Part shown: positions 3,097 to 6,233 of the stretch, in pieces
Numbering within the stretch: position 1 is the stretch's first letter
Layout: every line of letters starts with the position of its first letter
NCBI GenBank assembly: GCA_020354155.1
Contig: CP070644.1
Location: forward strand, 1,990,204 to 2,018,537
Length of the DNA stretch: 28,334 nt
Direction of reading: 5' to 3'
DNA from: Nitrospiraceae bacterium
GTDB taxonomy: Bacteria > Nitrospirota > Thermodesulfovibrionia > UBA6902
Translations under genes and position numbers: made by a program
The notes under the pieces: generated by a model
The model's input: only the letters and a program-made list of their open reading frames with translations
Database searches by the model: none
What the model was told of the DNA's origin: nothing

Positions 3097-3279
3097 TTAA
3101 TAACCCCCTTTTCTGATTTCTATTCCGTATTTTTTTATCTTGTATCCGATTACTCTTTCAGTAATGCCCAGTTTCTTGGCAGCCTGAGCCATGATATAAC
3201 TGCATTCATCGAGTGCTTTTTTTATGGCATCTTTTTCATATGCCTCTATTCTGCTTTTTAAAGAAATCATGATAATCAT
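3097..3279 (-). CDS. Stand-alone Fis/NifA-type helix-turn-helix microprotein (HTH1); alternative start 3270
   Basis: IEAYEKDAIKKALDEC...AQAAKKLGITERVIGYKIKKYGI resembles the C-terminal DNA-binding domain of sigma54 activators. By hand alignment, 29/57 residues are identical to the 6009-6233 paralogue. Confidence 0.8.
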   Translation of the reverse strand: MIIMISLKSRIEAYEKDAIKKALDECSYIMAQAAKKLGITERVIGYKIKKYGIEIRKGGY

Positions 3280-3288
3280 GCGAATAAT

Positions 3289-3304
3289 AGCGAGAACTAT
3301 GCCA
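3289..3304 (-). promoter_or_regulatory. sigma54 promoter of HTH1-amt2
   Basis: TGGCATAGTTCTCGCT: GG and GC at the canonical -24/-12 spacing. Confidence 0.75.
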
Positions 3305-3349
3305 GATCGAAAGGCCTTGTAATATAAAGAAAGTGCTAAGGCTATAATT

Positions 3350-3380
3350 ACAAAATTGTTATTTATTAAGACAAATTTGT
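3350..3380. promoter_or_regulatory. Paired palindromic upstream activator-like site
   Basis: ACAAAATTGT-N11-ACAAATTTGT. Confidence 0.65.
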
Positions 3381-3438
3381 ATGACGTTTTTGTGCAGGTG
3401 TGTTAATGAAAGACATGATGCGGCCTATTTATGGGTGG

Positions 3439-3467
3439 ACCGCAGCCCCTGAAAAAGGGGCTGCGGT
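3439..3467 (-). terminator. GC-rich hairpin downstream of glnK2 (possible terminator or mRNA stabiliser)
   Basis: Perfect 12-bp stem ACCGCAGCCCCT/AGGGGCTGCGGT with a 5-nt loop; no clear U-tract on the minus strand. Confidence 0.45.
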
Positions 3468-3509
3468 GGAGGGAATGAAGTATAGTGGATGTTTAGAACA
3501 CTCTGTTCA

Positions 3510-3848
3510 TTACAGTGCTTCTTCTCCTCTTTCTCCTGTCCTGATTCGGACAACATCTTCAAGGTCGTAGACAAAAATTTTCCCGTCTCCAATCTCGCCT
3601 GTTTTCGCCTTTTCCTGAATTGCCCTGATAACATCGTCAAGCTTGTTTCCAGGCACAGCAACCTCAATTTTAACCTTTGGCAGAAACTTGACCTCGTACT
3701 CTACTCCTCTGTAGACTTCCATGTGGCCCTTTTGTCTTCCAAAACCTTTTACTTCAATTGCGGTCATACCCTGGACACCGATTTTATTCAGGGCATCACG
3801 GACTTCATCGAGTTTGAAATGTTTTATAATGGCTGAAACCATCTTCAT
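3510..3848 (-). CDS. glnK: PII nitrogen regulatory protein GlnK (glnK2), intact
   Basis: 112 aa. Q39, Y46, Y51, K58, GEIGDGK (D88, K90), R101 and R103 are all present; AGGAGG SD; directly downstream of amt3. Confidence 0.97.
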
Positions 3849-3879
3849 AGTAGTATCCTCCTATTCGCTTTCAGATTGT

Positions 3880-5214
3880 TTACAAGGCACTGCTCTTGGC
3901 TGCAGGACGAAGTGCAAGGTCCGGGTATGCCTCAAGACCGTGCTCGCCAAGATCCAGCCCCTCAACTTCCTCTTCTTCCGATACACGCAGGCCCATTGTT
4001 GCCTTAACGACTGAAAATATTACAGTAGCTGCAACTGCTGTTGTGATGCCGTAGGCTCCGGCTCCCAGTAACTGTATGCCAAACTGTTTGAGTCCTGCCA
4101 TAGCGCCGAAGAGACCCACTGCAAGAGTGCCCCATATGCCGCAGACAAGGTGTACGGATATTGCACCGACAGGATCGTCGATCTTCAATCTGTCAATTGC
4201 CATGACCGATACCACAACAAGGCCTCCGGCGATCAGTCCGATCCAGAAGGATGAACCGAGTCCCATCTGGTCTGCACCGGCGGTGATGCCGACAAGACCG
4301 GCAAGGCAGCCGTTCAATACCATCGAAAGGTCAGGTTTTTTGGATATTATCCAGGTCGTGATCATGGCGCCCACGATCCCTGCGGCAGCAGCTATGCAGG
4401 TTGTGACCAGTGTAAGTGAAACCAGTGCCGGATCAGCGCTTAAAACTGAACCACCATTAAAACCAAACCAGCCAAGCCAGAGCAGAAATACGCCTATTGT
4501 TGCAAGAGGCATACTGTGTCCAGGTATTGGCTTGATCTTGCCATTCACATATTTGCCTTTCCGTGCTCCGAGCATTATGGCACCGATAAGGGCTCCCCAG
4601 CCTCCGACGGAATGAACAAGGGTAGAACCTGCAAAATCATAGAACCCCATGCTGTCCAGCCAACCGCCGCCCCATTTCCATGAACCGGTGATGGGATACA
4701 CGAGCCCTACAAAAATAGCGGAAAATACGAGGAACGAATTCAGTTTGATCCGTTCCGCTACTGCTCCTGAAACGATGGTCGCTGCAGTAGCTGCGAACAT
4801 GCCCTGAAACAGGAAGTCTGTCCAGTAGGTGTACCCTTCATTATATGCAAGGTCCAGGGCACCCGCCACTGTTGGAAAGGGCAGGCCAAAGCCGGCGAAA
4901 CCGAAAATGCCGTTAAATTCACCGGGGTACATGAGGCTAAAGCCGAGCCATGCATAGGTCAATAGTCCTATTGCCGGTATCAGCGTATTCTTGAACAGAA
5001 TGTTTACCGTGTTCTTTGATCGGGTCAGGCCTGCCTCAAGAGACGCAAAACCGAGATGCATGATGAACACCAGGAATGTTGCCACCATCATCCAGACATT
5101 GCTGATGGTCAAACCCAGCGAGGGGCCTGCAGCAGGAGCTGCTTCTTCTGCAAAAGCAGGCACTGCCAATGCCATCAGGAATAACATTAATTTTATTATC
5201 AGTTTACTCTTCAT
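3880..5214 (-). CDS. amt: Ammonium transporter, Amt1-like subtype (amt3)
   Basis: 444 aa. FIMHLGFASLEAGLTRSKNTVNILFKN, FAATAATIVSGAVAER, DFAGSTLVH and DDPVGAISVH (twin His) differ clearly from the AmtB-type motifs of amt1 and amt2. Confidence 0.96.
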   Translation of the reverse strand: MKSKLIIKLMLFLMALAVPAFAEEAAPAAGPSLGLTISNVWMMVATFLVFIMHLGFASLEAGLTRSKNTVNILFKNTLIPAIGLLTYAWLGFSLMYPGEFNGIFGFAGFGLPFPTVAGALDLAYNEGYTYWTDFLFQGMFAATAATIVSGAVAERIKLNSFLVFSAIFVGLVYPITGSWKWGGGWLDSMGFYDFAGSTLVHSVGGWGALIGAIMLGARKGKYVNGKIKPIPGHSMPLATIGVFLLWLGWFGFNGGSVLSADPALVSLTLVTTCIAAAAGIVGAMITTWIISKKPDLSMVLNGCLAGLVGITAGADQMGLGSSFWIGLIAGGLVVVSVMAIDRLKIDDPVGAISVHLVCGIWGTLAVGLFGAMAGLKQFGIQLLGAGAYGITTAVAATVIFSVVKATMGLRVSEEEEVEGLDLGEHGLEAYPDLALRPAAKSSAL

Positions 5215-5228
5215 TTTTCATTCCTCCT

Positions 5229-5981
5229 TTAGAAGCTTAAAGTTACATTCAGTCCGCCATAGACAAAACTGTCCTTGGCTTTACCGGTAGCATCAAGATT
5301 CATAATTGCATTCTCTGCGTCATCACTGAGTGCAAAGGTTGCTGCAATCACAGGCTCTATGGACAGGGCGTCGGTAATCGGGATGCTCACCGATGCAGAC
5401 AGCTCGCCGTTGTAGAGGTCGCTGAAGTCATTACCGGCAGCGTCAGTACCCATTACCGAGTTATCAAAATTAACGCTTGCTGATGCCCCAAGGTTCAGGG
5501 CATACTTTTCAGCGAACTCAAAAGAGTGCCCTATTGAGGCAACAAGGAATGCTCCGTCGCCCTGATCAAAGTCAACGTACAGTGTCGCGCTTGGGCTGAG
5601 CACTGTGTCGTAGCTGACTGTGAGATATATCTCCTGTGTGTCGCTTCCACCGGGAAACGCGTAGTAGATATACCCGGCATCAAAGCTGAATTTATCTACT
5701 CCAAATGTGTAATTTAGTGTAAGATCTGTTTCTGTAACGCCTGCAGTGGTGAGGCTGTTCGTGTTGTCATCCCAATTTGCCCAGAGGTTGGCTCCAAAAC
5801 CGCCGTAGGTTACTCCTACTGAAGGCTGAATAACAAAGCCGTCAGAGAGCCTCTGTCCTCGCCATGCGTAGTGGCTCATGAAAGCGGCTGAAGCACTGGC
5901 CGACTTTTCAACCTCTGCTCCGGCGTTAAAAGGCGCTGCTGCCATTCCAATCAAGACTAAAACTACCAAAATCTTTTTCAT
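5229..5981 (-). CDS. Putative outer-membrane beta-barrel, TorF/Gcw_chp-like porin
   Basis: Signal peptide MKKILVV...AGA, SHYAWRG motif, alternating beta-strand pattern and C-terminal Phe (LNVTLSF). Related proteins are known next to glnK-amtB. Start moved from 6002 to 5981 on SD and signal peptide. Confidence 0.7.
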   Translation of the reverse strand: MKKILVVLVLIGMAAAPFNAGAEVEKSASASAAFMSHYAWRGQRLSDGFVIQPSVGVTYGGFGANLWANWDDNTNSLTTAGVTETDLTLNYTFGVDKFSFDAGYIYYAFPGGSDTQEIYLTVSYDTVLSPSATLYVDFDQGDGAFLVASIGHSFEFAEKYALNLGASASVNFDNSVMGTDAAGNDFSDLYNGELSASVSIPITDALSIEPVIAATFALSDDAENAIMNLDATGKAKDSFVYGGLNVTLSF

Positions 5982-6008
5982 TTTCTCTTCCCCTTTGTTC
6001 ATTAAATG

Positions 6009-6233
6009 TTATTGATTCATGCTCCTGTTCTTTCCATCGGTACTGCTCACATCCGCTTCACCATAGCTCACCTCCTTCATCTTTATTTCATATTTCCTGA
6101 TCTTGTAAGCGATCATGCGCTCAGTAATTCCAAGCCTTCGTGTAGCCCTTGCCTGGACCCAGGCGCATTCCTTAAGGGCAGCGAGCATTTCTCGTTTCTC
6201 AATGAGTTCGATTCTCTTTTTCAATGAAGTCAT
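6009..6233 (-). CDS. Stand-alone Fis/NifA-type helix-turn-helix microprotein (HTH2)
   Basis: IEKREMLAALKECAWVQARATRRLGITERMIAYKIRKYEI is close to the NifA C-terminal pattern AL..xGWVQAKAARLLGMTxRQxxY. Confidence 0.8.
   Translation of the reverse strand: MTSLKKRIELIEKREMLAALKECAWVQARATRRLGITERMIAYKIRKYEIKMKEVSYGEADVSSTDGKNRSMNQ

Follow-up and report, generated by a model that had tools for sequence, protein, structure and literature searches.

Why should two ammonium transporter (amt) operons each begin with a gene for what looks like a lone DNA-binding domain? The question is raised by a stretch of 28,334 nt from a Nitrospiraceae bacterium (GenBank assembly GCA_020354155.1, contig CP070644.1, positions 1,990,204 to 2,018,537), which was analysed as a whole and is called the window here. 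On its reverse strand, two short open reading frames (ORFs), mini-genes A and B, open operon A (mini-gene, amt) and operon B (mini-gene, porin-like gene, amt, PII gene). Judged from their sequences, both ORFs are genuine, selected protein genes and not debris. Their products, mini-proteins A and B, belong to a clade of stand-alone NifA-type DNA-binding domains of about 55-80 amino acids (aa) that extends throughout the class Thermodesulfovibrionia. As to function, competition with the parent activator for its enhancers, leading to negative feedback, appeared to be the best reading, although it is held tentatively and at a little less than an even chance.

The mini-genes and the domain they encode

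The ORF of mini-gene A was intact and encoded 57 aa. Initiation at the in-frame ATG 3279 would lengthen the product to 60 aa, but this codon was unconserved and the methionine of the M-x-S-L-K start of the orthologues corresponded to ATG 3270. Mini-gene B, likewise intact, encoded 74 aa, and the two products were identical at 29 of 57 positions (51%). Both matched the Pfam helix-turn-helix (HTH) family HTH_8, with 44.1 bits for A and 39.2 bits for B at a cut-off of 22, and held no other substantial domain; an overlapping HTH_50 match in mini-protein A stayed below threshold. PF00158, the sigma-54 interaction AAA+ domain with the GAFTGA loop, gave no match in either protein. A hidden upstream domain was ruled out because the open frames around A and B comprised only 101 and 99 codons, respectively, were bounded by stops upstream and had a sigma-54 promoter directly upstream. 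A preliminary description of the window had reported these sizes, the intact frames, the lack of any further activator domain and the identity of 29/57, all of which were reproduced, the last one exactly. The HTH_8 profile search that it proposed placed both proteins above the cut-off.

The best solved relatives were the DNA-binding domain of the Aquifex NifA-like homologue 2 (Nlh2; 2m8g, E 2e-15) and NifA 9qq6. The AlphaFold2 model of mini-protein A had a predicted local distance difference test score (pLDDT) of 86 and helices at residues 4-22, 27-34 and 38-48. Foldseek aligned it with 2m8g at a TM score of 0.84 and a root-mean-square deviation of 1.3, with the NtrC4 and NtrC1 domains next and Fis after them (TM about 0.77). 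The model begins at helix B of the Fis/NtrC fold. The architecture given in the preliminary description, a dimerisation helix plus HTH, therefore stood for the HTH only, since the helix is helix B and helix A is missing. Helix A is the source of stable dimers in NtrC, NtrC4 and Fis (PMC10590331). When isolated, the DNA-binding domain of NifA folds and recognises its sites in vitro (PMC10590331). For mini-protein A, a homodimer model scored 0.35, against 0.00 for the best control, and so attained a mark that 21 of 30 solved homodimers and none of 23 single chains attained. The modelled interface ran along helix B and comprised residues 1-16 and 33-36. Together, the binding of isolated NifA domains in vitro and the homodimer model make competition for DNA sites plausible.

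Mini-protein B and its closer orthologues carried an acidic tail beyond the HTH (window 6009-6080, reverse strand), roughly E-V-x-Y-G-E-A-x-V-S-S-x-D. This tail, which may be an interaction motif, was missing from type A. Other short HTH_8 frames in the genome were considered as further mini-proteins and rejected as assembly-gap artefacts or remnants; a 61-aa frame at G000:C1:1209404 and several others were activator C-termini cut by runs of N.

The parent activator and its recognition helix

The best NCBIfam match of both mini-proteins was the NifA equivalog TIGR01817, confined to its last 45 positions (488-533 of 534). With 31.2 bits (A) and 43.8 bits (B) against a cut-off of 528.85, neither qualified as a whole NifA. 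The closest full-length protein in the genome was a 571-aa GAF-AAA+-HTH_8 activator (L018:3769-5484, reverse strand; G000:C1:894268-895983), which scored 570.1 bits on TIGR01817 and, within the domain, shared 56-57% of its residues with mini-protein A. The earlier view of the products as the C-terminal DNA-binding domain of an activator, standing alone, was upheld and refined: the parent is the NifA-type GAF-AAA+-HTH activator of Thermodesulfovibrionia. A nifDK-type (PF00148) homologue of the nitrogenase alpha or beta subunit was not found in the genome, which at 78% completeness does not prove its absence. On this ground, the NifA-type protein probably runs ammonium assimilation here rather than nitrogen fixation.

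The genome also encoded a 382-aa receiver-AAA+ protein without HTH_8 (L021:2115-3263, reverse strand; G000:C1 about 1,102,600-1,103,760), an activator lacking a DNA-binding domain, of the FlgR kind. A mini-protein might supply such an activator with DNA binding in trans. This arrangement was considered very improbable, as the 382-aa protein adjoins its own histidine kinase far from the nitrogen genes, a matching full-length NifA-type activator was present in nearly all genomes with mini-genes, and a mini-gene cannot provide the activator for its own first transcription.

The recognition helix of the mini-proteins, ITERMIGYKIKKYGI, was nearly invariant across seven families. In the activator it read ITPRQIGYKIKKYGI (about 20 genomes). 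The comparison of the two helices, also proposed in the preliminary description, gave a divided answer: 11 of 13 residues were shared, and the mini-proteins had E for P and M for Q. T-E-R-M, as part of GITERM, was present in 77 of 79 mini-proteins, whereas the full-length activators of the class had T-P/S/Q/E-R-Q, with M in none of them. Both positions lie in the first turn of the recognition helix and are DNA contacts in Fis. Because the mini-proteins have E and M where the activators have P (or S/Q) and Q, identical site specificity cannot be assumed.

In a maximum-likelihood tree of the domain, all 33 mini-proteins formed one clade (96/90) apart from the 20 full-length domains, indicating one ancient birth and later duplication. 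Within the mini-proteins, only the type located directly before amt was a supported subclade (8 rows, 96/92). Strict orthology of types A and B across the class was rejected; outside this subclade, the A and B labels taken from best BLAST matches do not denote orthology. Some relatives held a longer second NifA-like paralogue (L024:16161-16301, L030:14378-14521) in frames of 573-584 codons and with the helix ISQRQIGYKIKK. It was no more than about 10 kb away from the amt cluster and was present in addition to one of roughly 515 aa located elsewhere.

Distribution and selection

A word-indexed search detected 25 short homologues of 56-91 aa. Orthologues of mini-protein A were 61-82% identical, and those of mini-protein B preceded porin-amt-PII. 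Short-frame matches (<140 codons) were present in 34 of 41 genomes of the class and in all seven sampled families. When species genomes were scanned for ITERMI[GA]Y, 223 loci were confirmed, and with few exceptions their labels were Nitrospirota, Thermodesulfovibrionia, Thermodesulfovibrio, Dissulfurispiraceae or Ca. Sulfobium. An exhaustive profile search returned 415 representatives below E 1e-10, with almost all of the top ~100 being 50-100 aa long. The stretch LGITERMIGYKIKKYGI was almost invariant among the mini-proteins. Over 496 pairs, the mean proportion of synonymous differences was 0.79 (saturated), compared with a mean of 0.22 for nonsynonymous differences, which was 0.155 in the HTH half. 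The ratio of nonsynonymous to synonymous substitution rates (dN/dS) between orthologues ranged from 0.07 to 0.45 for the window's genes. With short homologues in 34 of 41 genomes and dN/dS well below 1, the earlier statement that the two copies are not random debris was upheld.

These results also bear on the question of whether the product matters at all. A mini-gene might be a decaying remnant of an activator, or a leader ORF that loads ribosomes for amt. The coupling is tight, with gaps of 4-6 nt after the mini-genes here (in operon A, the amt ATG lies 4 nt past the mini-gene stop) and overlaps in a relative, and the predicted leader is very short. However, purifying selection was strong and concentrated on the HTH, the recognition helix was nearly unchanged in the seven families, and the family had a single ancient origin, which renders an irrelevant product hardly credible.

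In a complete relative (CP070632.1, L004:2932-3093), the orthologue of mini-gene B was frameshifted just past M-S-S-L-K and called as 51 aa; this may be a homopolymer sequencing error. Outside the window, the proteins P0084, P0087, P0095 and P0122, with 190-320 aa, had three or four tandem HTH_8 and no AAA+ module. P0076 (1423 aa) had seven matched HTH_8 stretches. Such poly-HTH_8 architectures seem to be undescribed.

Promoters and upstream palindromes

Both mini-genes had a predicted sigma-54 promoter of the -24/-12 type directly upstream, with canonical GG/GC spacing and at a position kept in relatives (Table 1). Their assignment as first cistrons of sigma-54 amt operons in the preliminary description was thus confirmed. 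The distance from the C of the -12 element to the ATG was 12 nt in B and either 10 nt (ATG 3279) or 19 nt (ATG 3270) in A, so that the predicted transcripts would be leaderless or nearly so. Of 79 loci, 52 had a recognisable promoter, whose -12 element preceded the ATG by 12-40 nt, and 34 had an SD-like (Shine-Dalgarno) motif. Leaderless transcripts were therefore rejected as a family trait and appear to be a local feature, the distance being 12-13 nt here and in some relatives and 12-40 nt overall.

Alignment of 58 promoters on the -24 element gave a profile with a conserved TGGCAC-N5-T(T/C)GC and, just upstream of TGGCA, AAATCAAnnAGTTA, which agrees with the IHF consensus WATCAANNNNTTR. The IHF-like site was present in operon B (Table 1); its equivalent in operon A, at 3310-3323, was weaker. 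Further upstream, a pair of ACA-N4-TGT palindromes, often TACA-N4-TGTA, started at -75 and -56/-57 from the T of TGGCA. Since their spacing was mostly 18-19 bp across the 58 promoters, the palindrome itself was regarded as the conserved unit. A third palindrome was present 13 bp further up at some loci. The classical NifA motif TGT-N10-ACA between neighbouring palindromes was rejected as a general element, as it occurred only in the subset with 20-bp spacing. An extra half-site beside -24 was rejected as an operator, as the IHF consensus fully accounts for the conservation at this place. In the same 58-promoter profile, the mini-gene promoters showed no second motif that was conserved. The palindromes were assigned to the NifA-type activator as its putative enhancer because no other upstream element was conserved, sigma-54 promoters require an enhancer and no other activator had a similar helix.

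The strict core of the palindrome motif, ACAAWWTTGT, had been named in the preliminary description as the likely binding site. It was enriched: it occurred five times in the window, where 0.21 were expected and 0 of 100 shuffles reached five, and 17 times genome-wide. Paired ACA-N4-TGT palindromes were found at seven places in the genome. Two of these were the mini-gene promoters; two further pairs were located upstream of a PII-amt operon and of an archaeal-type glutamate synthase, with no mini-gene there. Degenerate copies were found ahead of a 497-aa gene and of a PII-remnant/amt unit in the window. From their locations at mini-gene, PII-amt and glutamate synthase promoters, the palindromes appear to mark a nitrogen-assimilation regulon, and a mini-gene was present at just two of its promoters.

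PII-amt units with palindrome pairs were located at window 1618-1633 (reverse strand) and at L141:2492-2507 (reverse strand; G000:C1, about 945 kb). Both contained a -24/-12-like promoter, TGGCAY-GCAT-N-TTGATA, in which GA replaces the canonical GC at -12, identically in the two paralogous promoters. At L142:2440-2510 (G000:C1, about 1,067,970), TACAATATTGTA and a second ACA-N4-TGT were located about 20 nt before the gene of a secreted Scaffold-domain protein. No sigma-54 promoter was found near this pair, which may be a repressor-type site or due to chance.

This last pair, together with the difference between TERM and TPRQ, which is fixed in mini-proteins and activators throughout the class, would suit a regulator with targets of its own. 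Its E/M helix would read other operators and tune or repress, for example, sigma-70 promoters, and the position in the operon would couple its synthesis to nitrogen limitation. Yet the mini-gene promoters held no second motif, the remaining residues of the recognition helix were those of the activator, and paired palindromes were rare in the genome and mostly located at nitrogen genes. A regulator of separate targets was therefore rated as rather unlikely.

The promoter architecture was also relevant to a positive or architectural role, in which a mini-protein dimer beside or between activator subunits would bend the DNA or stabilise the enhancer complex in the manner of Fis or IHF and would thereby raise the expression of its own operon by feed-forward control. 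Fis is a free-standing relative of the fold, a homodimer was modelled and some enhancers had the third palindrome. Against this, DNA bending already seems to be provided for by the conserved IHF-like site between the enhancer and -24. In addition, the mini-proteins have neither helix A nor the N-terminal arm that Fis has, and positive autoregulation of transporters without a brake would seem physiologically less attractive. A co-factor of this kind was considered quite unlikely.

Proposed competition at the enhancer

In the preferred reading, enhancer competition, the palindromes would be the enhancer of the single NifA-type GAF-AAA+-HTH activator of the class. Here, this activator would drive genes of nitrogen assimilation, namely several amt, PII, glutamate synthase and a TIGR04552-like gene. 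Under nitrogen limitation the activator would fire and the mini-proteins would be made first. Probably as helix-B dimers, they would read the same half-sites via an almost identical recognition helix and, as they have no AAA+ domain, would occupy the enhancers unproductively. The outcome would be delayed negative feedback, a self-limiting pulse, on the expression of Amt and porin and possibly of the whole regulon.

Several points weigh against enhancer competition. The E/M versus P/Q difference falls in the first turn of the helix that reads DNA, and the specificity may have shifted. The palindromes, of which the activator is the putative binder, differ from the classical TGT-N10-ACA in their usual spacing of 18-19 bp. 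NifA-type domains without helix A were reported to be monomeric off DNA (PMC10590331), and the homodimer may have scored as it did because the model had memorised dimers of NtrC4 and Fis. In this genus, the ATG is located at about +1 to +2 without an SD, so that translation of the mini-genes would depend on leaderless initiation.

The shifted helix and the palindromes could also be combined in two overlapping enhancer codes. Mini-protein dimers would read the 10-12-bp ACA-N4-TGT, while the activator would read TGT...ACA half-sites in another register, making the first cistron a built-in, specificity-tuned competitor that limits sigma-54 activation to a pulse. This variant is quite unlikely; if true, it would provide the first natural antagonist of a bacterial enhancer-binding protein that consists of a DNA-binding domain only.

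Gene neighbourhood

The genes following the mini-genes were identified by Pfam matches (Table 1). The preliminary description had placed the SD of the next gene near the 3' end of both mini-genes. This was correct for operon A, in which the amt SD is GGGGG in the codons K-G-G inside the 3' end of mini-gene A, and incorrect for operon B, in which the SD of the porin-like gene (GGGGAAGAG, before ATG 5981) follows the stop of mini-gene B. Between the operon genes, no terminator-like or sigma-70-like site was found on the same strand.

Table 1. Location of the mini-genes, predicted regulatory sites and downstream genes in the window.
Feature	Position	Strand	Description
Mini-protein A	3097..3270	-	Stand-alone NifA-type DNA-binding domain, three helices
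Mini-protein B	6009..6233	-	Same domain with acidic, semi-conserved C-terminal tail
Sigma-54 -24/-12 promoter, operon A (predicted)	3289..3304	-	TGGCATAGTTCTCGCT, TGGCAT-N5-TCGCT
Sigma-54 -24/-12 promoter, operon B (predicted)	6245..6260	-	TGGCATGGTTTTCGCA, TGGCAT-N5-TCGCA
Enhancer A (putative)	3349..3381	.	Two 10-bp palindromes, ACAAAATTGT and ACAAATTTGT, starts 21 bp apart
Enhancer B (putative)	6325..6355	.	Palindromes ACAATTTTGT and ACAAATTTGT, starts 19 bp apart
IHF-like site, enhancer B to -24	6266..6279	-	TTTTCAAGAGCTTA
Ammonium transporter, cistron 2 of operon A	1770..3092	-	Ammonium_transp 1.5e-113
Remainder of operon B	3510..6002	-	Pfam matches; order conserved in relatives
Porin-like beta-barrel gene, operon B	5229-5981/6002	-	
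amt, operon B	3880-5214	-	
PII (glnB), operon B	3510-3848	-	

The gene order of the window was found again on the contigs of relatives that carry mini-genes. The common order was 497-aa gene, mini-gene, porin-like gene, amt, PII, mini-gene, amt, PII, amt, amidotransferase and glnA. For one of these relatives, labelled Nitrospiraceae, the order was seen on a complete chromosome of 3.17 Mb. In most of the 79 fetched loci, genes for porin-like protein, Amt and PII were located downstream on the same strand, in agreement with the synteny with amt that the preliminary description had suggested examining. No RNA run containing this DNA was found. Contigs from four RNA libraries, aligned at 80% likeness and representing only amt fragments of relatives, matched conserved parts of amt alone and left the mini-genes essentially uncovered. 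A receiver-AAA+ activator before the window (G000:C1:1989460-1990104) was cut by an assembly gap after 123 of 168 AAA+ positions. As both this gene and the first amt of the window are cut there, adjacency across the gap is uninformative.

Comparison with known systems and significance

The domain itself, its fold, the existence of a lone activator domain (Fis) and the blocking of enhancers by truncated NifA or inactive DctD are already known. Apparently new is a natural, class-wide family of proteins consisting of a NifA domain only, encoded as first cistrons of the target operons of their presumed activator. No description of such natural NifA-domain-only proteins was found in the literature, and a 2025 survey of sigma-54 regulons mentioned neither Nitrospirota nor amt.

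The C-terminal domain of NifA-type activators (TIGR01817; 2m8g; 9qq6) shows the same fold of helix B plus HTH without helix A, with 48% identity to 2m8g. In contrast to it, the mini-proteins are free-standing, with no GAF, AAA+ or linker region, and are encoded by genes of their own inside target operons. They carry E/M where NifA has P/Q (TPRQ) and form a separate clade. Fis, a nucleoid protein of gamma-proteobacteria, resembles them as a stand-alone protein derived from the HTH_8 domain of an activator and is structurally similar over helices B-D. It is said to have been regarded by Morett and Bork in 1998 as derived from the DNA-binding domain of NtrC. However, Fis has 98 aa, with an N-terminal beta-hairpin arm and a helix A that give a stable dimer with a four-helix core, and the mini-proteins of 55-80 aa lack both. 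Fis is global, controlled by growth phase and related to NtrC, whereas the mini-proteins are related to NifA, occur only in Nitrospirota and are associated with sigma-54 amt operons. With 57 and 74 aa and with NifA-type proteins, not NtrC or Fis, as their nearest sequence relatives, mini-proteins A and B do not belong to Fis.

The isolated C-terminal domain of NifA binds upstream sites, and inactive DctD blocks the activation of dctA. As proposed here for the mini-proteins, a DNA-binding domain without an active AAA+ domain sits on the enhancer in these cases and cannot activate. Truncated NifA and inactive DctD are laboratory truncations or inactive states, whereas the mini-proteins would do so as a separate natural gene family. 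Eukaryotic microProteins such as Id and LITTLE ZIPPER are small, dominant-negative single-domain paralogues of transcription factors and are induced by the larger regulator, as the mini-proteins would be by theirs. The mini-proteins share with them the derivation from a larger regulator, indicated by their position beside the NifA-type domains in the tree, and the loss of the effector domain. However, Id and LITTLE ZIPPER mostly act by heterodimerisation via a protein-interaction domain and do not bind DNA, while the mini-proteins retain the DNA-binding domain itself.

Activation at sigma-54 promoters is usually described as being controlled only via the sensory domain of the activator or by anti-activators that bind the AAA+ ring. 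If enhancer competition is true, the mini-proteins would place a new layer of control at the enhancer itself, exerted by a conserved, separately encoded DNA-binding domain as the first product of the operon. They would be the second independent case, after Fis, of an activator HTH domain turned into a free protein. They would also provide a simple handle on nitrogen regulation in Thermodesulfovibrionia, a group of abundant and little-studied anaerobes.

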